Positions 2,428-61,500 of a DNA stretch of 64,000 bases are shown piece after piece. Position numbers and translations under genes: made by a program. Under the pieces are notes generated by a model. The model searched no databases, was not told the DNA's origin, and saw only the letters and a list, made by a program, of their open reading frames with translations. Within the stretch, counting starts at the first letter, position 1. Each line of letters begins with the position of its first letter. The stretch is taken from NCBI GenBank assembly GCA_017626395.1, contig JAGAIU010000075.1, positions 42,349 to 106,348 on the forward strand, written 5' to 3'. This DNA comes from Clostridia bacterium. Its GTDB lineage: Bacteria; Bacillota; Clostridia; TANB77; CAG-465.

Positions 2428-3882
2428 TTAATTTACTTTTATTTTTAGCATTTTTTGAAACATATTTTTACTCATTCTCCAGAATTCATCTTTTTTTATT
2501 GCTAAAAAAGCTAATGTACATATCAAGAAAAACAATCCGCCAACCAATATTTGAACAACTATTGTTACTATACTATCTCCTATTAGTGTGCCTAACCAAT
2601 TAACTATAAACATCATACAAAATCCTATTATAAGAACAGGCATATATTCAAAAATATATTTAAGTACAGGGATTTCTTTTCTTACAGCAAAAACTTGCAT
2701 TATCATTACGCTAAATTCTGCAAATATTGTTCCTATTGCAGCACCAACAGCAGCGTATTTAGGTATCAACAATAAATTGATTATTAAATTTACAATTCCT
2801 CCAACCACAGTAGATATAACATAAATTTTATCATAATTATTTGGCATTAAATATTGTGTTCTGATAACATTAGCCCATGATATAAAAAATACAGTTATTG
2901 ATAATAAATATATAATTTTAGCAGATGGTTCAAATCCTTCTCCAAAAAAAACTGGTGTAAAAACATTACTAATTCCCATTAATCCAAAAGCAATAGCAGA
3001 TGATATTATAGTTACTAATTTAACAGATAAAGAAATATACTGCTTGCTTTTATCATTTTTACCATTAGCAACCATATTTGACATCCTTGGAAGCATAACA
3101 GTTCCTAAAGCTGTTATTATTCCCATCGGTATATTAATTATCTTTTCCGCATTATTATAATATCCTACTTCTGAATAATTAGATATATTTCCTAACATTA
3201 TTTTATCCATTACTTTATATATACTATAAGCTATAACAGGAATAAAAAGTATGATTATAGGCTTTATATTTTCTGTTATATTTCTAAAACTTACTTTTTT
3301 AAAAGTAACAAATTTCTTAACATAAAACCAAAGATATAATTGACTAATAAAAGTTCCTAATGACATAATCAAAGTATAAATCCATAAGTCACTTATATCT
3401 TTTACAAATATAAACATACTAATTACAGTTAAAATTTTAATTACAACATTTCTAAATACTGTCAATTTAAATTGTTCTAATCCGAAAAATAACCAACTAA
3501 TATCTAATAAACCTGAAGCAACATAAAAAGTTTGCAATAAAAATATCATGTTGTTTTCAGAAGCTATAAATAAAGAATATACAACATAACTTATTATTGC
3601 TATTATGAACAATATAAATTGCAATGAATATATACTGCTAAACTTTTCATTTAATTTTTCTTTATCATCACGTACAGATGCAATAGTTCTATTTCCATAA
3701 TTACTAATTCCGAGCATAGCAATTAATATAAAATAGTATGCAACAGAGTTGGTATAAGAATAAACTCCAACTGCATTGGCACCAAGTGTTCTAGAAATAT
3801 ATGGAGCGGTAATTAGTGGTAATATAACTAGTAATATTTGATATATTGTATTATATATAAAATTTTTCTTAACAGATTCCAT
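2428..3882 (-). CDS. wzx: Wzx-type oligosaccharide flippase (polysaccharide biosynthesis protein, MOP superfamily)
   Basis: 484 aa, multi-helix membrane protein. The N-terminus (IYNTIYQILLVILPLITAPYISRTLGANAVGVYSYTNSV) is typical of the PST/Wzx family. Confidence 0.85.
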   Translation of the reverse strand: MESVKKNFIYNTIYQILLVILPLITAPYISRTLGANAVGVYSYTNSVAYYFILIAMLGISNYGNRTIASVRDDKEKLNEKFSSIYSLQFILFIIAIISYVVYSLFIASENNMIFLLQTFYVASGLLDISWLFFGLEQFKLTVFRNVVIKILTVISMFIFVKDISDLWIYTLIMSLGTFISQLYLWFYVKKFVTFKKVSFRNITENIKPIIILFIPVIAYSIYKVMDKIMLGNISNYSEVGYYNNAEKIINIPMGIITALGTVMLPRMSNMVANGKNDKSKQYISLSVKLVTIISSAIAFGLMGISNVFTPVFFGEGFEPSAKIIYLLSITVFFISWANVIRTQYLMPNNYDKIYVISTVVGGIVNLIINLLLIPKYAAVGAAIGTIFAEFSVMIMQVFAVRKEIPVLKYIFEYMPVLIIGFCMMFIVNWLGTLIGDSIVTIVVQILVGGLFFLICTLAFLAIKKDEFWRMSKNMFQKMLKIKVN

Positions 3883-4768: not shown

Positions 4769-5921
4769 TTATCACCTTTGATAATTTATCTAAATAACCA
4801 TACGATTTTTCTTTTAAACCGTCTAATCTGCTATAAACATCTTCATAATCTGGCATTTCATTTAAATCCATTTCTTTTAAATCTTTTATTGTTTTATATC
4901 TTCCCATAAGATTTAATTGTGTCAAAAACGAAATCGCTCTATCATCTTTTGATGGATCATTTTTTCCACTATCTATATACCAGAAATTTTTACGATAAAT
5001 TGTTGCAAAAGCTGTTCCATGAAAAGATGTAGTTATAAACATTTTAGAATTTTTAACAACATTCATATATACATCTGGACCATAACTTTTTATTAATTTT
5101 ATTTTGTTTTTCCAGCATGTTTTTAAAGTCCATTCCTTGGCTTCCATAAAATATACTGGCATATTATATTTCTTTGAAACAAAATTTAAAAACTTTTGAA
5201 CTTCCTCTGTAATATGGAAACAATAATAAAAAATATAATCTCCTTTAATTATTGGTTCTCCTACATTTACAGTATTTTCCCATTCTTCCTCAGATAATAA
5301 CATAGTTGGGTCTAAGCAAATTTGTGGCTCTATACCAGTACCTGCTTTAATCCATTTTTGTGCATTATGTTCTCTAACAGAAAGTAAATTAAAATTTCTA
5401 ATGCATTCTGCATACTTGTCCTTCTTGTTAGTTAAAAAAGGATTATTTGCTCCAAAACTTACTGCATATGATAATTTAGGAGCTTTTGTTTCAAAATCTA
5501 AATAATAAATATCATCCGCATCTTGTGCTTTAACGTTCCAAACTTGGTCACTTCCAGCTACAAAAGCATCATACTTATCTTTTATTTTTTCAAATTCTTC
5601 TCTATTAGAAATAATCTTTCCCGATAACTTAAAGTACTTATTAATAAATTCATTATATGAATTAAATTGTATTTTTAATTGTTTTAAATTTGTAGCTAGA
5701 ATCATATTTTTAATGATTTTTTTATAGTTTGTTGCTTTTGATAAAACAGCATACATATTCTGTTGTGCTTCATTTGAATAATTAACTACTTCTGCATCAA
5801 AATTATATTTGTTTCTTAAAACACTTTGTAAAGCTAATGTTTGTAACATTGATCCATTATTATGTGACGCATGAAACGTCATTATACCTACTTTTTTCAT
5901 ACTTAAAACTTCCTTTCCCAT
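4755..5921 (-). CDS. Polysaccharide pyruvyl transferase family protein
   Basis: 388 aa. The N-terminal motif KVGIMTFHASHNNGSMLQTLALQ matches the PS_pyruv_trans signature (TFHxxHNYGAxLQAYAL). Confidence 0.65.
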   Translation of the reverse strand: MGKEVLSMKKVGIMTFHASHNNGSMLQTLALQSVLRNKYNFDAEVVNYSNEAQQNMYAVLSKATNYKKIIKNMILATNLKQLKIQFNSYNEFINKYFKLSGKIISNREEFEKIKDKYDAFVAGSDQVWNVKAQDADDIYYLDFETKAPKLSYAVSFGANNPFLTNKKDKYAECIRNFNLLSVREHNAQKWIKAGTGIEPQICLDPTMLLSEEEWENTVNVGEPIIKGDYIFYYCFHITEEVQKFLNFVSKKYNMPVYFMEAKEWTLKTCWKNKIKLIKSYGPDVYMNVVKNSKMFITTSFHGTAFATIYRKNFWYIDSGKNDPSKDDRAISFLTQLNLMGRYKTIKDLKEMDLNEMPDYEDVYSRLDGLKEKSYGYLDKLSKVINDGK

Positions 5922-55630: not shown

Positions 55631-56437
55631 ATGCAAATCTACCTAGACTATATTTTTTTAGAAAATTTAATAGTAAATACAGTAATAATTATAGAAACAA
55701 TTATATTTACAAAGAGCGATATTTCAATAAAAAGAAAAGTGTTTATCATACTTTTAGATACAATTCTATCGTGTTTTTTAGCAATTAATACTAATCTAAA
55801 TACCTATATACTTCATTTATTTTTTTCTACTATAACACTTTTCATACTTTTTAAATCTCCTAATATTTATGAATTACTTAAAAAAATGGCCTGTTATTAT
55901 ATGCTTTACTTTTTATATATGGGATTAATAATTTCGTTTTGTATTATTTTTAATATAAATTTAGAGGTTTTTATAAATAAAATAATATTATATGTTTTTT
56001 CTGCTTTAGTTTTTCATTTTATTTGTAAAGACTTGTGGAAAATGTGGAAGATTAATATAACTCAGAAAAATTTATATTATACATTAAAATTTAAAAAAAT
56101 AGAAATTAAAGCTTTTGTAGATACGGGAAATAGTATAAAAGATCCAATTACTTCTTTAGATGTTATATTTATTAACGAACAATTAAAATATTCTATATTA
56201 AATGAAATTAAAGAATATAAAAAAATAAATATAGATGTTTTAACTATAAACGGAAAAGATACTAAAGAAGGATATATAGTAAAAGATGTTATAGTATATA
56301 AAGAAAAAAGAGAGATTGCTAAAATAAGTAATATAATTTTATCTTTTTCATTAAATAATAGTAGTACTCCAGAAAAATATAGTGCAATAATTGGGTATGA
56401 TACATACTTAGATAAATTAGAGGGGGTAATATTATGA
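55631..56437 (+). CDS. spoIIGA: Sigma-E processing peptidase SpoIIGA
   Basis: Polytopic N-terminal half plus a C-terminal aspartic protease motif FVDTGNS. It overlaps sigE by 4 nt. Confidence 0.85.
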   Translation: MQIYLDYIFLENLIVNTVIIIETIIFTKSDISIKRKVFIILLDTILSCFLAINTNLNTYILHLFFSTITLFILFKSPNIYELLKKMACYYMLYFLYMGLIISFCIIFNINLEVFINKIILYVFSALVFHFICKDLWKMWKINITQKNLYYTLKFKKIEIKAFVDTGNSIKDPITSLDVIFINEQLKYSILNEIKEYKKINIDVLTINGKDTKEGYIVKDVIVYKEKREIAKISNIILSFSLNNSSTPEKYSAIIGYDTYLDKLEGVIL

Positions 56438-57141
56438 TAAAAGAAGAAATTAGATTGATGTATTTAAAAGTGTTAAGATGGTTAGGTTTAGGAGAATCTT
56501 TTGTATACTATATAGCAGGTAATGATAAACTTCCAGCACCACTATCCGAACAAGAAGAATATGAACTTTTAAAAAGATTAATGAATAAGGATAAAGAAGC
56601 TAAAGATATTTTAGTAGAGAAAAATCTAAGATTAGTTGTATATATTGCTAAAAAATTTGAAACATCAGGTATTAATATAGAAGACTTAATTTCTATAGGC
56701 ACTATAGGTCTTATGAAAGCAATTAATAGTTATAATTTAGATAAAAATATTAAACTTGCCACATATGCTTCAAGATGTATAGAAAATGAGATTTTAATGT
56801 ATTTAAGAAAGAATAATAAGATTAAAACAGAAATTTCTATAGACGAACCAATTAATGTAGATAGTGAAGGTAATGATTTATCTTTAGCAGATATTTTAGG
56901 AACAGATAACGATGCAATTTTTAAAAGTATAGAAGATGAAGAAAATAAAAAAATATTAAAAAATGCAATTCAAAATTTAAACAAAAGAGAAAAAACTATA
57001 ATGCAACTTAGATATGGGTTTGATGGTAAAGAAGAACTAACTCAAAAAGAAGTAGCAGATAAACTAGGGATTTCTCAATCATATATATCAAGACTGGAGA
57101 AAAAAGTTATAAATAATTTAAGAGAAGATTTTACTGCATAG
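56434..57141 (+). CDS. sigE: Sporulation sigma factor sigma-E (pro-sigma-E)
   Basis: N-terminal pro-sequence followed by sigma-70 regions 2-4 (YIAKKF...GLMKAI; C-terminal HTH QKEVADKLGISQSYISRLEK). Confidence 0.9.
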   Translation: MIKEEIRLMYLKVLRWLGLGESFVYYIAGNDKLPAPLSEQEEYELLKRLMNKDKEAKDILVEKNLRLVVYIAKKFETSGINIEDLISIGTIGLMKAINSYNLDKNIKLATYASRCIENEILMYLRKNNKIKTEISIDEPINVDSEGNDLSLADILGTDNDAIFKSIEDEENKKILKNAIQNLNKREKTIMQLRYGFDGKEELTQKEVADKLGISQSYISRLEKKVINNLREDFTA

Positions 57142-57196
57142 TTTGTTGATAATTTATTTATTCTGTGCTATTCTAATACCAAAGGATGTGAATAGC

Positions 57197-57751
57197 ATGT
57201 ATGTATTAATTTTAATAACTATAATCTTAATAATAACTACAATTTGCATATATAACACTATGCTTTCAAAAAAGAATAAATTATTAAAATCATATGCAAG
57301 TTTAGATGTTATGCTAAAGAAAAGATATGATTTGGTTCCTAATGTGGTAAATACAGTAAAAGCATATGCTAAATATGAACAAGAGACTTTAGAAAAAATT
57401 ATTAGCATAAGAAGTAGAGCAAATGAGTGTAAAGATTCAAAAGATTTAGAAGAAGTATCACAAAATTATAATATGTTTATGGACGATGTAAGTTTTCTTG
57501 CTGAACAATATCCAGATTTAAAAGCTAATACTAATTTCTTACATTTGCAAAAATTATTAAATGAATTAGAAGAGCAAATATCTGCTGCAAGAAGAACATA
57601 TAATGCTCATGTTGAGAAATTTAATACATATATTAGCTACATTCCATTAAATATCTTTGCAAGTATATTTAAATTCAAGCCTTATGATTTCTTTGAAATT
57701 AATTCGCATGAAAGAGAAACTAAAATTTGGTTTAACGAGGATGAAAAATAA
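57197..57751 (+). CDS. lemA: LemA family protein
   Basis: N-terminal transmembrane helix and the LemA core (RRTYNAHVEKFNTYISYIPLNIFASIFKFKPYDFF). Track ORF 57143 starts earlier. Confidence 0.75.
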   Translation: MYVLILITIILIITTICIYNTMLSKKNKLLKSYASLDVMLKKRYDLVPNVVNTVKAYAKYEQETLEKIISIRSRANECKDSKDLEEVSQNYNMFMDDVSFLAEQYPDLKANTNFLHLQKLLNELEEQISAARRTYNAHVEKFNTYISYIPLNIFASIFKFKPYDFFEINSHERETKIWFNEDEK

Positions 57752-57753
57752 AT

Positions 57754-58812
57754 ATGAATAAAGAATGGGAAAATGAGTTTAATATATTTTATGAAGAATA
57801 TACAGGTAAAATAAATGAGTATTATGAAGAGATAAATAAAAAGAAAAATAAAACAATAGTGGCTGCTTCCATGATAATTATTGCTTTAATAATAGTGTTT
57901 TTACTAGGGACATATGAAATAAATAATATAATACCTAATGGCTATATACTTCAAATAATAGGGGGAATATTAATTATAGTTGTATCATGTGGAGCTGTTG
58001 TTCTTAAAATAAAGCAAGAATTGTCTAGTAAAAGTATAGATATCATTCATAATATAATAAAGAATATTTCTAAAGATGATAACTGCTTTTTTAATCCTAA
58101 AAATAGAATTAATAATAAAAACATCGAAGAAATGGGATTATTTAATCTAAACAACCTAAAGTATAATGGAAGAAATGCTATTGCAGCAAATTATAATGGG
58201 AATATGATGAATTTTGCTGATATGGAACTATTTTATTTTAAAGATAAAGTAAGAGAAGAAGTATATTATGATAGTCAGGGTATAAAACATATTAAAACAA
58301 TTAAGAGCAAAATAAAAAAAGAATTTTTTAGTGGATGCTATATTAGTGCTACTTTAAATAAAAAAATAGCGGATCATATATATCTTATACCAAATAATTT
58401 GAAAGAAATAGTAATAAATGGAACTATTAATGAATATATTAAATATCCCGGTGAAAAATTAGAATTAGAGAATTTAGAATTTTCTGAGAAATATAGGGTA
58501 TATAGTAAAGATGAAATACAAGCTAGATATATTTTATCTTTAAAATTAATGGAACAAATAAATCAAATAGATGATATATTACCTGGTAAAAAATATATAG
58601 TTTTTAAAGAAGGTAGAAGATTTGCTATTTGTATACAAGATTTTAAAATTGAAGATTTGAAAAAAACAACTTTACCATTAAATAAAAATTCAGAAAAATT
58701 AAAATCAAATATAAGATACATATATAAAAATATTTATAAATTATTTGAAATATATAATATTTTAGATTTAGGAAATGATTTATATGTAAATAATTATGTT
58801 GACAAAAAATAA
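57754..58812 (+). CDS. Hypothetical membrane protein, possibly DUF3137-like
   Basis: 352 aa with two transmembrane helices. It lies 2 nt after lemA. The DUF3137 assignment rests on that gene order and on size, and is weak. Confidence 0.35.
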   Translation: MNKEWENEFNIFYEEYTGKINEYYEEINKKKNKTIVAASMIIIALIIVFLLGTYEINNIIPNGYILQIIGGILIIVVSCGAVVLKIKQELSSKSIDIIHNIIKNISKDDNCFFNPKNRINNKNIEEMGLFNLNNLKYNGRNAIAANYNGNMMNFADMELFYFKDKVREEVYYDSQGIKHIKTIKSKIKKEFFSGCYISATLNKKIADHIYLIPNNLKEIVINGTINEYIKYPGEKLELENLEFSEKYRVYSKDEIQARYILSLKLMEQINQIDDILPGKKYIVFKEGRRFAICIQDFKIEDLKKTTLPLNKNSEKLKSNIRYIYKNIYKLFEIYNILDLGNDLYVNNYVDKK

Positions 58813-58827
58813 AAATTAATATATAAT
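58799..58827 (+). promoter_or_regulatory. Perfect sigma-A consensus promoter TTGACA-17-TATAAT for the cysS leader
   Basis: The plus strand reads TTGACAaaaaataaaaattaataTATAAT. Confidence 0.6.
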
Positions 58828-58856
58828 ATATGCATATTTGAAGGGAGAGATTTAGT

Positions 58857-58898
58857 ATGAAAAAATATAATATTGTTAACTGTTGTTGTATGAGATAA
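58857..58898 (+). CDS. Candidate 13-aa Cys-codon leader peptide MKKYNIVNCCCMR
   Basis: RBS AAGGGAGAG lies 8 nt upstream of the ATG. Three consecutive TGT codons at 58881-58889 are followed by ATG AGA TAA. Confidence 0.5.
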   Translation: MKKYNIVNCCCMR

Positions 58899-58988
58899 CA
58901 CTCTTATCTATGTGAGTAGGTATGAGTGATTAATTTCATGCCTACGTTAGCAATATATATTTGAATCATATTATTTAGAATATATAAA

Positions 58989-59019
58989 AACTATGTAGGC
59001 ATACTACATAGTTTTTTTG
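58989..59019 (+). terminator. Leader intrinsic terminator (attenuator) upstream of cysS
   Basis: AACTATGTAGgcataCTACATAGTT followed by TTTTTTT, 20 nt before the cysS RBS. The 5-prime arm (GTAGGCAT) can alternatively pair with ATGCCTAC at 58938-58945. Confidence 0.6.
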
Positions 59020-59039
59020 TATTTAAGGGAGGAATAAAA

Positions 59040-60512
59040 ATGAAAATATACAATTCAATGACAGGTAAAAAAGAAGAATTTAAACCTTTAGAAGAAGGAA
59101 AGGTTAAAATGTATGCTTGTGGTATTACAGTTTATGATTTAAGTCATATTGGTCATGCAAGACAAGCAATAGTTTATGCTATGATAGCAGATTATTTAAG
59201 ATATAGAGGATACGATGTAAAATATGTAAGAAATTATACAGATGTTGATGATAAAATAATTAATAGAGCTAACTTGCTAGGAAAAAATGCAATAGAATTT
59301 TCAAAAGAACAAATAGAAGAAACAGAAAAAGATATGACTGCATTACATATACATGATGCAGATGTTAAAACAAAAGCTTCTGAATATATAGATAAAATAA
59401 TACAATTTATTGAAAAACTAATTGAAAAAGGAATTGCATATTCAACAGAAAAAGGAGATGTATATTATTCTGTTAGAAAATTTAAAGAATATGGAAAACT
59501 ATCTAAAAGAAAAATAGATGAATTATTAAACGGTGTTAGAAAAGATGTAGAAGAGGGAAAAAATGACCCTTTAGATTTTGCACTATGGAAAGCAGTTAAG
59601 CCAGGAGAGATATATTGGGATTCGCCTTGGGGAAATGGAAGACCTGGATGGCATATAGAATGTTCTGTAATGGCTTTAGATAATCTAGGTGAAACTGTAG
59701 ACATTCATGGTGGTGGTAAAGATTTAGTATTCCCACATCATGAAAATGAAATAGCACAAAGTGAAGCTTTGACAGGAAAAGAATTTGCTAAATATTGGTC
59801 ACATTGTGGGTTAATTAAAATTAATGGAGAAAAAATGAGTAAATCTTTAGGAAACTCTTTAACAATTAGAGAAGCTCTAAAAAAATATAATTATGAAGTA
59901 ATAAAATATGTTATGTTTTTAAAACATTATACATCAGATATTGATTTATTAGATAGTGATTATGCACTTGCTGAAAGACATCTATACTATTTCTATAATA
60001 CTATAAATAAAATAAATGAAATAATAAAAGAAAATGAAGTGGAAAATGTGAATAACTATTTATCAGATGATATTTCTGACGAAATAAAGAATAAATTTAT
60101 AGAAGCAATGGATGATGATTTTAATACTACAGTCGCATTATCTGAACTTTATTCTATATTTAAATATTTAAATAATATAATAAAAGCAATGAATAGAGGA
60201 AATAAAGAGCAAACAATAAATACTTTAAATAGAATATTAACTAATTTAAAAGAAGTTTATAGTATATTAGGGTTATTTGAACAAAACCCAATTGAATTTA
60301 TATTTGGACTAAAAAATAAATATATTAGTCAATTGAATATAACAGAAGAAGAAATAGAAAGCAAAATAAATAAAAGACTAGATGCTAAGAAAAATAAAGA
60401 TTTTGATATAGCAGATAAAATAAGAGATGAATTAAATGAAAAAGGTATCATATTAAATGATACAAAAGAAGGAACTACATGGGATTTAAAAGGATTATAT
60501 ACAATAGAATAG
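59040..60512 (+). CDS. cysS: Cysteine--tRNA ligase
   Basis: HIGH motif (LSHIGHARQ) and KMSKS (KMSKSLGN) are present. Length 490 aa. A terminator follows at 60516-60542. Confidence 0.95.
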   Translation: MKIYNSMTGKKEEFKPLEEGKVKMYACGITVYDLSHIGHARQAIVYAMIADYLRYRGYDVKYVRNYTDVDDKIINRANLLGKNAIEFSKEQIEETEKDMTALHIHDADVKTKASEYIDKIIQFIEKLIEKGIAYSTEKGDVYYSVRKFKEYGKLSKRKIDELLNGVRKDVEEGKNDPLDFALWKAVKPGEIYWDSPWGNGRPGWHIECSVMALDNLGETVDIHGGGKDLVFPHHENEIAQSEALTGKEFAKYWSHCGLIKINGEKMSKSLGNSLTIREALKKYNYEVIKYVMFLKHYTSDIDLLDSDYALAERHLYYFYNTINKINEIIKENEVENVNNYLSDDISDEIKNKFIEAMDDDFNTTVALSELYSIFKYLNNIIKAMNRGNKEQTINTLNRILTNLKEVYSILGLFEQNPIEFIFGLKNKYISQLNITEEEIESKINKRLDAKKNKDFDIADKIRDELNEKGIILNDTKEGTTWDLKGLYTIE

Positions 60513-60705
60513 TAAAAAGAGTGCTTAGCACTCTTTTTTTGTCTATGTAACTCGAAATTATCATTAAATAATAAACCATTCATATAAGTATAATAGGAAA
60601 TTCCGTCAAAATTGAGTGTGTTTGACTAAAAAGCACAAGAATAGTCGAAAGGGAATATCTTAAAACTCATATGTAAAAAATATTAACGATGAAGGAGAGG
60701 TACAT

Positions 60706-61500
60706 ATGATGAATGGAACAAATGTAAAAGTAGAGATACAAGGATTAGATACATCTAAACTTCCTAAATTGTCTCAAAAAGAACAAATGGAAATGTTAAA
60801 GAAGATAAAGGATGGGCAAACACAATATAAAGAAGAATTTATTAATGCAAATTTAAGATTAGTTTTAAGCTTAGTAAAGAAATTTAATAATAGAGGTGAA
60901 AATATTAACGATATTTTCCAAGTAGGAGTAATAGGCCTTATTAAAGCAATTGATAATTTTGATATTACTCAAGAGGTACAGTTTTCAACTTATGCTGTTC
61001 CAATGATAATAGGTGAGATAAAAAGATATTTAAGAGATAATAGTGCTTTTAGAGTAACTAGATCGTTAAGAGATTTATCTTATCTAATATCACAAGAAAG
61101 AGAAAAATTTATTGCTAAAAATAATGAAGAACCTACAATAGATGATTTAGAAAAAATAACTGGAGCACCAAGAGAGCAAATTATACTCGCTATAGATAGT
61201 ACTGTTGCACCAATGTCTATATATGATACTGTATATAATGATGGTGGAGATCAAATATATTTACTAGATCAACTAAAAAATGAAAAGGAAGATTCTGAAG
61301 ATTTAATAAATAAAATATCTATAGAACAAATACTAGATAATTTAAATGAAAAAGAAAGATATATAATTGAAAAAAGATATTTTAAAGATAAAACTCAAAT
61401 AGAGCTAGCAGAAGAATTAGGAGTATCGCAAGCACAAGTTTCAAGAATTGAAAAAGCAGCATTACTTAGGATTAGAAATAAAATAGGGAAAGAAATATAA
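60706..61500 (+). CDS. sigG: Sporulation sigma factor sigma-G (SigF/SigG family)
   Basis: Sigma-70 regions 2-4 are present (LVKKFNNRGENINDIFQVGVIGLIKAIDNFD; C-terminal HTH QIELAEELGVSQAQVSRIEK). Confidence 0.85.
   Translation: MMNGTNVKVEIQGLDTSKLPKLSQKEQMEMLKKIKDGQTQYKEEFINANLRLVLSLVKKFNNRGENINDIFQVGVIGLIKAIDNFDITQEVQFSTYAVPMIIGEIKRYLRDNSAFRVTRSLRDLSYLISQEREKFIAKNNEEPTIDDLEKITGAPREQIILAIDSTVAPMSIYDTVYNDGGDQIYLLDQLKNEKEDSEDLINKISIEQILDNLNEKERYIIEKRYFKDKTQIELAEELGVSQAQVSRIEKAALLRIRNKIGKEI

Follow-up and report, generated by a model that had tools for sequence, protein, structure and literature searches.

How is transcription of cysS controlled in a clostridial genome where the usual regulator of this gene is missing? 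In Firmicutes cysS is usually under T-box control, a premise of the preliminary description of this locus that agrees with Andre et al. 2010 (PMC2940859). Within the window, by which we mean the whole stretch of 64,000 nucleotides that was analyzed, we saw no T-box sequence or specifier loop in the cysS leader, and an Rfam scan of 58300-59500 gave zero matches to the T-box or any other family at E <= 10. The same was true of the whole window at gathering score, and the Rfam T-box model had zero matches in 16 related loci, among which every other type of copy described below is included. On this absence of covariance-model matches at the locus, in the window and at the 16 related loci, a T-box riboswitch (RF00230) was rejected as the identity of the element, and the earlier claim that no T-box sequence or specifier loop is present stands.

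The cysS leader at 58799-59018 is very probably a cysteine-specific leader-peptide (ribosome-mediated) transcription attenuator, and it most likely reads charged tRNA-Cys via ribosome stalling. That a trp/his-type attenuator sensing Cys-tRNA charging takes the place of a T-box before cysS had been proposed from the sequence, and the proposal is supported by all three of its computational refutation tests. The parts of the leader, their conservation, their complementarities and their fixed geometry are directly established; each of the features noted earlier is present, with coordinates that are exact or at most 1 nt off. The mechanism is classical attenuation and is already known, and the leader sequence family is new: we found no description in the literature of the family to which this Cys-codon leader belongs. 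The elements that frame it are the following.

58799-58804 and 58822-58827, + strand: sigma-70-type promoter, TTGACA and TATAAT with a 17-nt spacer
58841-58849, + strand: Shine-Dalgarno sequence of the leader, AAGGGAGAG, 7 nt 5' of the ATG, read from the sequence
58857-58898, + strand: leader ORF MKKYNIVNCCCMR, 13 codons, ATG at 58857 and TAA at 58896-58898
58881-58889, + strand: a run of three Cys codons (TGT TGT TGT), where the ribosome is proposed to stall and thereby sense that Cys-tRNA(Cys) is scarce
58986-59018, + strand: intrinsic terminator, 13-bp stem (58986-58998 / 59004-59016), loop GCAUA, U7 at 59012-59018
59025-59033, + strand: cysS RBS, AAGGGAGGA, unsequestered in every predicted fold
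59040-60512, + strand: cysS, cysteine--tRNA ligase of 490 aa (TIGR00435, 541 bits against a cutoff of 340)

The promoter is perfect, as first described, and is the sole 12/12 match in 57500-61000; the DUF3137 gene upstream extends at its 3' end into the -35 hexamer. The leader ORF lies ~30 nt past the -10 box, behind a 5' UTR of ~23-30 nt, and has its own Shine-Dalgarno sequence and start codon; both its length of 13 codons and its three TGT codons were confirmed. So was the terminator with its U7 tail just before the cysS RBS, which folds at -14.3 kcal/mol (58986-59016). As a whole, 58830-59042 folds at -63.9 kcal/mol, as compared with -35.9 +/- 3.6 kcal/mol in 200 dinucleotide shuffles (z = -7.8), none of which folded as well, and 4 terminator-like sites are observed versus 0.4 expected. 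Several RNA segments compete with one another in the window copy.

58873-58896, + strand: segment 1, which spans the leader ORF's 3' half with its Cys codons, partner of 58933-58953 in ribosome-free RNA
58899-58928, + strand: relay hairpin A:B, with strand A CACUCUUAUCUA at 58899-58910, loop at 58911-58916 and strand B UAGGUAUGAGUG at 58917-58928
58916-58924, + strand: strand B in its alternative role, GUAGGUAUG (the same as GTAGGTATG), pairing with CAUGCCUAC (the same as CATGCCTAC) at 58937-58945
58933-58953, + strand: segment 2 (C), the contested strand, with segment 1, B or the terminator 5' arm as partner
58954-58986, + strand: AT-rich hairpin in the spacer from C to D, part of the predicted antiterminated fold
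58991-59002, + strand: segment 3 (D), CUAUGUAGGCAU, part of the terminator (upper 5' arm plus loop) and complementary to segment 2

Each of the three possible partners of segment 2 is well matched to it. The RNAalifold consensus independently joins segment 1 to segment 2 through 16 predicted pairs, 7 of which are kept through two-sided changes by our own tally of the per-pair table (9 pairs are so kept in the fold in total), and the duplex has an energy of -6.2 to -14.7 kcal/mol across 11 sequences; the same consensus also predicts the nested A:B hairpin and the terminator. Hairpin A:B (CACUC-U-UAUCUA / UAGGUA-U-GAGUG; -12.3 kcal/mol) sits directly 3' of the leader stop codon. Its B strand is complementary to segment 2, the pairing of 58916-58924 with 58937-58945 that had been proposed from the sequence, and the B:C hairpin amounts to -15.5 kcal/mol in the window copy. 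The third partner is the terminator 5' arm, which faces the antiterminator strand of segment 2, AUGCCUACGUUAG at 58938-58950: here ATGCCTAC (58938-58945) is complementary to GTAGGCAT (58995-59002, terminator 5' arm and loop), and the C:D duplex of the window copy reaches -15.2 kcal/mol; over the 11 sequences the range is -11.7 to -19.6 kcal/mol, with z = -2.1 to -5.5 relative to shuffles. The spacer hairpin, whose ATATAT / ATATAT blocks are semi-conserved, may draw both antiterminator strands together; this is the weakest part of the model. A further small hairpin (AGATAA..TTATCT, 58893-58909) that had been pointed out at the leader stop codon does exist, but it is weak (-1.8 kcal/mol) and is not conserved in relatives; the conserved hairpin at this place is 58899-58928.

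Related leaders were found in uncultured Clostridia, 12 copies in 10 contig lineages, located before cysS (8), cysE (1; TIGR01172, 236 bits, over the cutoff) and CysK-like genes (3; the CysK/M-like genes score 286-306 bits with TIGR01136). One contig, L003, carries two copies, one before cysS and one before cysE. The placement before cysE and CysK-like genes goes further than what had been proposed from the sequence. The mini-ORF and its Cys codons, for which conservation had been predicted, are kept throughout: 12/12 copies retain the frame, the start codon and an ORF of 12-14 codons, each with a purine-rich SD-like stretch at most 16 nt before the start codon, and all 12 carry a run of 3-4 Cys codons that lies one or two codons ahead of the stop. 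Four of the 12 show synonymous TGT/TGC changes within the Cys run. The N-terminal residues vary, and the leader peptides differ outside the run (MKKYNIVNCCCMR, MKKILFTNCCCMR, MKLFLNARCCCMS, MRKMLFTNCCCNI, MIKNMFVNCCCCMR, MKQNNVVINCCCR, MDFNHIITICCCS, MSLIIIANCCCM and MIKNIIMNCCCCM). Three copies were retrieved with a metagenome pattern in which Cys codons were not specified, and all three contain the run. Nine of the ten lineages show a TTGACA-type -35 and a TATAAT-like -10 before the leader; TTGACA-17-TATAAT is clear in L003, L004, L081, L085, L087 and L089, the -10 in L206 is TATATT, and for L099 and L208 the observation is of the hexamers alone.

The geometry of the leader is also fixed. 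In each of the 11 distinct sequences, the hairpin that follows has its base 8-10 nt past the last Cys codon, which is about as far as a ribosome extends past its A site, and 0-3 nt past the end of the leader stop codon. The leader element is absent from roughly half the close CysS lineages and from two CysK-like lineages, and our own covariance model, run on 1.68 Mb of fetched DNA, found nothing comparable elsewhere bar one unrelated weak match.

Conservation beside the Cys run has to be weighed against a different sensor, in which the nascent peptide N-C-C-C-M stalls the ribosome via the exit tunnel and drives the same RNA switch, the trigger perhaps being a small molecule or redox state and not Cys-tRNA charging. 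An N precedes the run in 9/12 copies and an M follows it in 9/12, which could reflect either RNA pairing or a role of the peptide, and because the RNA part would be identical, the structural data fail to separate the two ideas. However, the flanking codons lie within segment 1 and pair with segment 2, so that their conservation is accounted for at the RNA level; the variants CCCR*, CCCS*, RCCCMS and ICCCS break the flanking motif, whereas the Cys run is always kept. Moreover, the regulated genes are exactly those that make cysteine or charge tRNA-Cys, as a charging sensor predicts, and leader peptides of 12-14 residues are short beside known arrest peptides. We regard peptide arrest as very unlikely and keep to a leader that reads Cys-tRNA charging.

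The alternative pairings put forward in the preliminary description are also borne out across the copies. For A:B, B:C, C:D and D:E, 93-99% of cells are paired, versus 12-56% in slid-partner controls, and there is compensation in the stem between the leader and segment 2 and in the terminator. Hairpin A:B, paired in 95% of cells over the 12 copies, has one pair that alternates between CG and UA and another that occurs as UG, UA and CG. In the terminator (D:E, 99% of cells) two pairs are compensated (AU<->GC); where the D strand changes from A to G, in L004 and L099, E compensates (AU to GC) and C still pairs via U.G. C:D is paired in 97% of cells in the 10 copies that allowed an alignment and forms favorable duplexes in 11/11 distinct sequences, and for the divergent terminator arm of L208 the best partner is the C strand of the same copy (-15.7 kcal/mol, as compared with -14.4 kcal/mol for the C strand of L206 and -8 to -11 kcal/mol for those of the remaining copies). 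B:C, at 93% of cells, has zero two-sided changes, and a G to A change in the B strand of L004, L099, L206 and L208 gives an A.C mismatch. The support for C:D and B:C comes from conserved complementarity without two-sided compensation, the copies being too alike for a harder test.

Such conservation of nucleotides might also be expected of a switch made of RNA only, with a protein, a tRNA or a metabolite reading it in trans. Examples would be a T-box-like element in very degenerate form or a so far unknown riboswitch that responds to a sulfur metabolite; the ORF would then be incidental or serve for ribosome loading alone. CCTAC and TAG of segment 2 are invariant in 12/12 copies, the hairpins and the loop-proximal GUAGGUAUGAGUG and CCUAC are highly conserved in nucleotides, and a T-boxCys is usual for such genes in Firmicutes (PMC2940859). 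Against this, the T-box and other Rfam families are unmatched even at E <= 10, and the helices are plain, with conserved ligand-type internal loops or junctions absent. An RNA-only switch also leaves the conserved SD, ATG, frame and synonymously varying Cys codons unexplained, and it has to contend with the spacing between Cys codons and hairpin that is fixed at 8-10 nt. We give it little credence and return to an attenuator that is read by the ribosome.

For the cysS leader we infer as follows how the leader is translated, how the ribosome stalls, how this is timed against RNA polymerase and what results for regulation. Transcription would start ~7 nt past the -10 box, and the 13-codon leader would be translated as RNA polymerase proceeds. 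When Cys-tRNA(Cys) is scarce, the ribosome would stall with one of the UGU codons of 58881-58889 in its A site, covering segment 1 (58873-58896) with its front edge at or short of the base of A:B (58899-58928). As A:B would remain folded, strand B would be locked and segment 2 (58933-58953) left without an upstream partner, and it would therefore pair with 58991-59002 once this is transcribed; this antiterminator would block the terminator and cysS would be transcribed. When Cys-tRNA(Cys) is plentiful, the ribosome would reach the UAA at 58896-58898, which adjoins the A:B hairpin. A distance of ~38 nt separates the stop codon from segment 2, too far for a ribosome at UAA to cover segment 2 directly; the conserved relay hairpin appears instead to release B as a substitute partner, strand A being melted by the ribosome at UAA and B thereby freed to pair with segment 2. 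Upon ribosome release, segment 1 may re-pair with segment 2. With segment 2 sequestered by B or by segment 1, the terminator at 58986-59018 would form and transcription would stop before cysS.

We modeled these states by masked folding, in which the transcript is folded before the terminator 3' arm is made and ribosome-covered RNA is blocked, in 11 sequences. P(C:D) was ~1.0 in 11/11 sequences when the first Cys codon was the stall site and the ribosome edge was set at +9 to +15; placing the last Cys codon in the A site left it at ~1.0 for edges up to +12/+13. With the ribosome at the stop codon, P(C:D) was 0.0-0.4 in the 7 copies of the cysS/cysE type (edges +11 to +14), and B:C forms in this state; naked pre-terminator RNA gave 0.0-0.2 in 9/11 sequences. 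The stop state of L004, L099 and L208 still yields C:D at equilibrium, as does the naked pre-terminator RNA of L004 and L099. In the model, the mask of a Cys stall thus predicts the antiterminator in 11/11 sequences, and the stop mask or naked RNA predicts sequestration of segment 2, and hence termination, in most copies.

At full length, the terminated conformer of the window copy is favored by ~3.5 kcal/mol (-36.2 kcal/mol versus -32.7 kcal/mol for the antiterminated one), and its equilibrium fold keeps the terminator in all ribosome states (P ~0.9-1.0). Because full-length equilibrium favors the terminator, the switch must be kinetic, like those of classical attenuators, and it could work only with an antiterminator that is formed before the terminator and is then kinetically long-lived. 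A constitutive terminator that insulates cysS or sets a low basal level, the ORF and the complementarities being chance products of AT-rich DNA, in which hairpins and short ORFs arise readily, would suit that equilibrium fold but is scarcely credible in view of the perfect promoter between the upstream gene and the terminator (by which the terminator acts on transcripts begun 190 nt before it), the Cys run in 12/12 copies before three different cysteine-related gene families, the z scores of the fold (-7.8) and of C:D (-2.1 to -5.5), and a covariance model that found nothing comparable in 1.68 Mb bar one unrelated weak match.

With copies before cysE and CysK-like genes in relatives, the ribosome-read attenuator would make a small cysteine regulon. 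We lean slightly toward the broader idea that in a lineage of very AT-rich uncultured gut Clostridia this leader-peptide family, with its stop-adjoining relay hairpin, replaced T-boxes regulon-wide. If so, at least cysS, cysE and CysK-like genes would form a 'Cys ribulon' controlled through transcription termination, and the relay hairpin would stay intact under a ribosome stalled 8-10 nt upstream and be melted by one at the stop, whereupon the freed strand would lock the antiterminator.

The overall layout resembles that of the classical attenuators (trp, his, leu, thr, pheA, ilv and pheST), which likewise have a promoter-proximal short ORF with tandem cognate codons, a segment 1 over these codons that pairs with segment 2, a segment 2 that alternatively pairs with the terminator 5' arm, and an outcome set by the position of the ribosome. 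The sharing of a strand between 2:3 and 3:4 pairing is seen here in the pairing of 58938-58950 with 58991-59002. The his and thr attenuators have more than four segments, as does the cysS leader. However, similarity in sequence or covariance model to the Rfam families Trp_leader, His_leader, Leu_leader, Thr_leader and Phe_leader is absent, and the cysS leader would sense cysteine in low-GC spore-forming Clostridia, whereas the classical cases are mostly from Proteobacteria. Its relay hairpin A:B, combined with a stop codon ~38 nt from segment 2, is its departure from the classical design.

The closest counterpart by gene is uORFC-8-2 of Rhodobacterales, a predicted ribosome-mediated attenuator before cysS (Brewer et al. 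2021, PMC8632094). It too has a uORF with tandem Cys codons in the first stem, followed by a terminator stem and U run, and the proposed logic is the same; like the Clostridia leader, it is a prediction. By its published description it is nevertheless set apart, and we rejected identity on Cys number and position, architecture, host and gene range: its uORF contains two Cys codons (mostly UGC, usually as codons 14-15), as compared with 3-4 at positions 9-12 that are mostly UGU; it has two prominent stems and is alphaproteobacterial, whereas the Clostridia leader has more than four segments; and it precedes cysS only, whereas the Clostridia leader is also found before cysE and CysK-like genes. 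As GC content and layout are very different, convergence is more likely than homology.

The mycobacterial 'Cys ribulon' consists of polycysteine leaderless short ORFs (Canestrari et al. 2020, bioRxiv 10.1101/834739), whose response to cysteine was demonstrated by experiment (10.1101/834739); Cys-codon leaders had been predicted there earlier (Seliverstov et al. 2005, PMC1262725). Here as well, Cys runs near the stop precede several cysteine loci, one signal serving one regulon. However, the mycobacterial ORFs are leaderless, and the stalled ribosome opens an RBS-sequestering structure, a translational control without an intrinsic terminator. The Clostridia leader differs in having a 5' UTR of ~23-30 nt with an SD, an intrinsic terminator and a cysS RBS that is unpaired in the predicted folds, and on these grounds we rejected its assignment to the mycobacterial leaderless class.

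In function, the nearest relative is the T-boxCys (RF00230) of Firmicutes, which is found before cysS/cysES, cysK-cysE and related genes (Andre et al. 2010, PMC2940859). Position, terminator/antiterminator output and signal, the charging state of tRNA-Cys, are all the same, but the T-boxCys reads uncharged tRNA directly, through its specifier codon and T-box sequence and without translation. In the Clostridia leader these features are absent and the ribosome would be the reader, and the leader family apparently fills the role that the T-boxCys has in other Firmicutes.

The cysS gene of the window is preceded by a leader for which the preliminary description had claimed a promoter, a mini-ORF with Cys codons, and a terminator within 58799-59042; all three were confirmed in the sequence, and the coordinates of the ORF were recomputed.

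Features of the cysS leader and its surroundings
58799-58827, + strand: perfect sigma-70-type promoter (TTGACA 58799-58804, 17-nt spacer, TATAAT 58822-58827), the sole 12/12 match within 57500-61000
58841-58849, + strand: Shine-Dalgarno sequence AAGGGAGAG
58857-58898, + strand: leader ORF of 13 codons (ATG 58857 to TAA 58896-58898), peptide MKKYNIVNCCCMR
58881-58889, + strand: three TGT (Cys) codons in the leader ORF
58986-59018, + strand: intrinsic terminator (13-bp stem 58986-58998 / 59004-59016, GCAUA loop, U7 59012-59018)
59025-60512, + strand: cysS, cysteine--tRNA ligase (RBS 59025-59033, ORF 59040-60512; TIGR00435, 541 bits)
60514-60538: perfectly symmetric terminator AAAAAGAGTGCT-TAG-CACTCTTTTT with flanking T runs on both strands, immediately 3' of cysS and 5' of the sigG promoter region

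The minimum free energy of the leader is -63.9 kcal/mol, as against -35.9 +/- 3.6 kcal/mol for shuffled sequence (z = -7.8). Downstream, the symmetric terminator insulates cysS from sigG. In Clostridia, sigE usually lies next to sigG; within 55631-61500 of the window, lemA (57143-57751), a DUF3137 gene (57754-58812) and cysS lie between spoIIGA-sigE (55631-57141) and sigG (60706-61500), and this order, spoIIGA-sigE-lemA-DUF3137-cysS-sigG, is kept in four of the related uncultured Clostridia whose contigs were fetched (L081/82, L085/86, L087/88, and L089/90).

The nearest CysS proteins are those of uncultured gut Clostridia, with 57-72% identity in GTDB genomes and 71-100% across the best 120 matches in a large protein collection. 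When the DNA upstream of CysS relatives was fetched for 13 lineages, the leader was found in six CysS lineages beyond the window (L081/82, L085/86, L087/88, L089/90, L003, and L004); it was absent upstream of CysS in L001, L002, L005, L006, L009, L083/84, L091, L095, L096, and L098, and every element-less CysS locus that was scanned with Rfam lacked a T-box. Contig L003 carries a second copy at 5200-5244, upstream of cysE (TIGR01172, 236 bits, exceeding the cutoff of 211). A metagenome collection was also scanned with the pattern GTAGRTATGAGT-N8-25-CCTAC, which covers hairpin sequence only and leaves the Cys codons unspecified: at least 120 stretches matched, mostly by chance inside unrelated sequence, and three of the listed matches (L099, L206, and L208) were true copies, each with a short ORF bearing CCC or CCCC. 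These three precede not cysS but CysK/M-like genes (TIGR01136, 286-306 bits, under the curated cutoff of 344); two further CysK-like lineages (L219-L222) are without the element. A covariance model (R1) built from eight copies recovers 12/12 copies at 64-171 bits and gave no other convincing match in 223 sources (1.68 Mb), and a regular-expression search of the window found no second copy there.

The mini-ORF and its Cys codons, expected to be conserved upstream of cysS in relatives, are indeed retained in every copy found there, and also before cysE and the CysK-like genes. The leader peptides are MKKYNIVNCCCMR (window), MRKYNIVNCCCMR, MKKILF(T/A)NCCCMR, MKKILFANCCCMI, MKLFLNARCCCMS, MRKMLFTNCCCNI, MIKNMFVNCCCCMR, MKQNNVVINCCCR, MDFNHIITICCCS, MSLIIIANCCCM, and MIKNIIMNCCCCM. 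All copies share the start codon, the Shine-Dalgarno sequence, the reading frame, the Cys run, and a length of 12-14 codons; the remaining residues vary, and a synonymous TGC occurs in four copies at differing positions within the run. That the Cys run persists through synonymous changes, and does so before three cysteine-related gene families, is the best evidence for the Cys codons as the functional signal.

To describe the helices we refer to segment 1 (the 3' half of the leader ORF), strands A and B (the hairpin after the stop codon), C (segment 2), D (the 5' arm and loop of the terminator), and E (its 3' arm). RNAalifold, run on the model-based alignment of the copies, predicts a long stem between segment 1 (58873-58896) and segment 2 (58933-58953), within which the A:B hairpin (58899-58910 / 58917-58928) is nested, together with the terminator; nine of the pairs in this fold hold through two-sided changes.

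Pairing of each helix across the aligned copies (+ strand)
A:B hairpin: 95% of cells paired; one CG<->UA compensatory pair and one pair of UG/UA/CG types
58916-58924 / 58937-58945, B:C: 93% of cells paired; no two-sided changes; four A.C cells
Segment 1:2, core: 86% of cells paired; two-sided changes in three pairs
58938-58950 / 58991-59002, C:D antiterminator with one bulge: 97% of cells paired; no two-sided changes
D:E terminator: 99% of cells paired; two compensatory pairs

When the partner strand was slid by 1-3 columns as a control, pairing fell to 12-56% for every helix. The lack of two-sided covariation in B:C and C:D follows from the close similarity of the copies. The antiterminator is further supported by the energy of the C:D duplex, which in 11/11 distinct sequences is -11.7 to -19.6 kcal/mol (z = -2.1 to -5.5 relative to shuffled sequence), and by the divergent terminator arm of L208, whose best partner is its own C strand; matched and mismatched C x D duplexes average -15.0 and -13.6 kcal/mol, a small gap that is informative for L208 only. 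Where an A of the D strand has become G, E compensates and C keeps pairing via wobble, as expected for a strand having two alternative partners, which is a third point for the antiterminator. The B strand has a G->A change in four copies (L004, L099, L206, and L208) that places an A.C mismatch in B:C. One further element of the preliminary description, a small AGAUAA/UUAUCU hairpin over the stop codon, does exist but is weak (-1.8 kcal/mol) and broken in L087, L089, and L003, and we have dropped it.

The geometry of the leader is tightly kept: from the last Cys codon to the base of A:B there are 8-10 nt in 11/11 sequences (exactly 9 nt in nine), and from the end of the stop codon to that base 0-3 nt. 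The footprint of a bacterial ribosome reaches roughly 9-12 nt past the first base of the codon in its A site. For masked folding, we kept just the RNA downstream of the ribosome and cut it immediately before the 3' arm of a hand-defined terminator, which represents the moment of decision. Stalling at the first Cys codon gives C:D a probability of ~1.0 in 11/11 sequences for ribosome edges of +9 to +15; when the A site holds the last Cys codon, the value is again ~1.0 as long as the edge does not exceed +12/+13. For a ribosome that has reached the stop codon, edges of +11 to +14 give 0.0-0.4 in the seven cysS/cysE-type copies, and naked RNA folded up to the terminator 3' arm gives 0.0-0.2 in 9/11 sequences. 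For L004, L099, and L208 the at-stop state is not told apart from the stalled state at equilibrium; in the mismatch copies (these three and L206), the Cys-codon region may contribute more than B:C by sequestering segment 2 (UGUUGUAG : CUACAAUA).

For the window copy, the predicted energies are -12.3 kcal/mol for A:B, -15.5 kcal/mol for B:C, -14.3 kcal/mol for the terminator, and -28.8 kcal/mol for segment 1:2 plus A:B. The antiterminated and terminated conformers, at -32.7 and -36.2 kcal/mol, are by these calculations close enough in energy for a kinetic switch. The alternative conformers of the preliminary description are supported by folding ahead of the terminator, but at full length equilibrium folding of the window copy retains the terminator in every ribosome state, so that the switch must be kinetic, like classical attenuators. 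Since none of the predicted folds pairs the cysS RBS, control would be exerted at the level of transcription termination.

Under the proposed mechanism, a ribosome stalled at the Cys codons would cover segment 1 and leave A:B intact, locking strand B and depriving segment 2 of an upstream partner. A ribosome that reaches the stop codon would have to open strand A, which would free strand B for segment 2, and with no ribosome segment 1 would pair with segment 2.

The locus was scanned with Rfam at E <= 10 for a T-box or another known RNA family; there was no T-box and no real family, only noise (a trpB motif at E = 5.9, snoZ39, mir-1277, and LhrC). At gathering score, two tRNA-Ser genes are all that the 64-kb window yields, and 16 related loci contain only tRNAs and no T-box. 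These scans rule out both possibilities and agree with the preliminary description, which had seen no T-box; the element, at ~180 nt, is compact and without a counterpart in Rfam 15. Taken with the conserved Cys run, the alternative helices, and the geometry, they favor ribosome-mediated attenuation, which, with the refinements described here, is very probably how the cysS leader works.

Several other leaders and repeats were seen. A weak match to model R1 (26121-25990, minus strand, 39 bits) lacks the Cys run and all of the motifs and is not a member; it falls in an unrelated 5' leader of ~150 nt that follows a promoter-like site (25988-26157, minus strand), with a palindromic hairpin GGCGACAUGUCGC (~26080-26067) and an intrinsic terminator AGACUUUACGCG-AAAAA-GGCGUAGGGUCU with U7 (~26023-25988) just 5' of the RBS of a Ca2+/Na+ antiporter gene (25962-25015, minus strand; TIGR00367, 264 bits). 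This leader matches no Rfam family at gathering score and could be an undescribed attenuator or riboswitch of a cation transporter. In L093 (~2897-2974) and L094, which form one lineage, cysS is preceded by a different uORF of 25 codons with a good Shine-Dalgarno sequence and two adjacent Cys codons (MSNVIGKKTYNSIKRCCNFKFINIL), ending ~28 nt upstream of the start codon; its region has no visible terminator and no similarity to the Cys leader, and it could be a separate Cys-sensing leader that acts on translation, or a product of chance. Upstream of it (~2640-2860), several tandem inverted-repeat units GGGGACACACACCGAAAT / ATTTCGGTGTGTGTCCCC resemble a small repeat or mobile element that has inserted between the genes. 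In L083/L084, the CysS lineage of P0047, the ~310-nt intergenic region upstream of cysS (~2691-3000) holds a strong hairpin GACUGACUAGAAAUAGUCAGUC; it lacks a Cys leader and matches nothing in Rfam.

In Proteobacteria, the control of amino-acid and aminoacyl-tRNA synthetase genes by leader-peptide attenuation is textbook knowledge; in Firmicutes, where T-boxes dominate, such control is uncommon. We regard the element as a new sequence family of an already known type of switch. In one lineage of gut Clostridia that are uncultured, AT-rich, and spore-forming, it precedes cysS, cysE, and CysK-like genes at the least, and it adds a cis-regulatory family common to at least three cysteine-related gene families; in our literature search, whose coverage was incomplete, no earlier description of it in Clostridia or other Firmicutes was found. 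It marks cysteine-metabolism genes in uncultured gut bacteria and, as a small part that responds to cysteine, could find use in AT-rich anaerobes; it changes no principle and is a clean, well-supported addition. In Firmicutes T-boxCys normally precedes cysS or cysES, and in some clostridia also cysK-cysE and transporter genes (PMC2940859), and the element is likely a functional replacement of it. Andre et al. (2010) noted that some clostridia have no T-box before cysK, so that other mechanisms must exist (PMC2940859), and for one lineage the element offers a concrete candidate. Its proposed working mechanism is that of the classical trp/his/pheST attenuators. Cys codons in leaders have also been described in Rhodobacterales, where the cysS leader uORFC-8-2 has two and is a prediction only (PMC8632094), and in mycobacteria, where polycysteine leaders were predicted earlier (PMC1262725) and leaderless polycysteine sORFs have been tested experimentally and exert translational control with no terminator (10.1101/834739). 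The Clostridia element would be the third independent case of Cys-codon sensing by the ribosome, an instance of convergent evolution.
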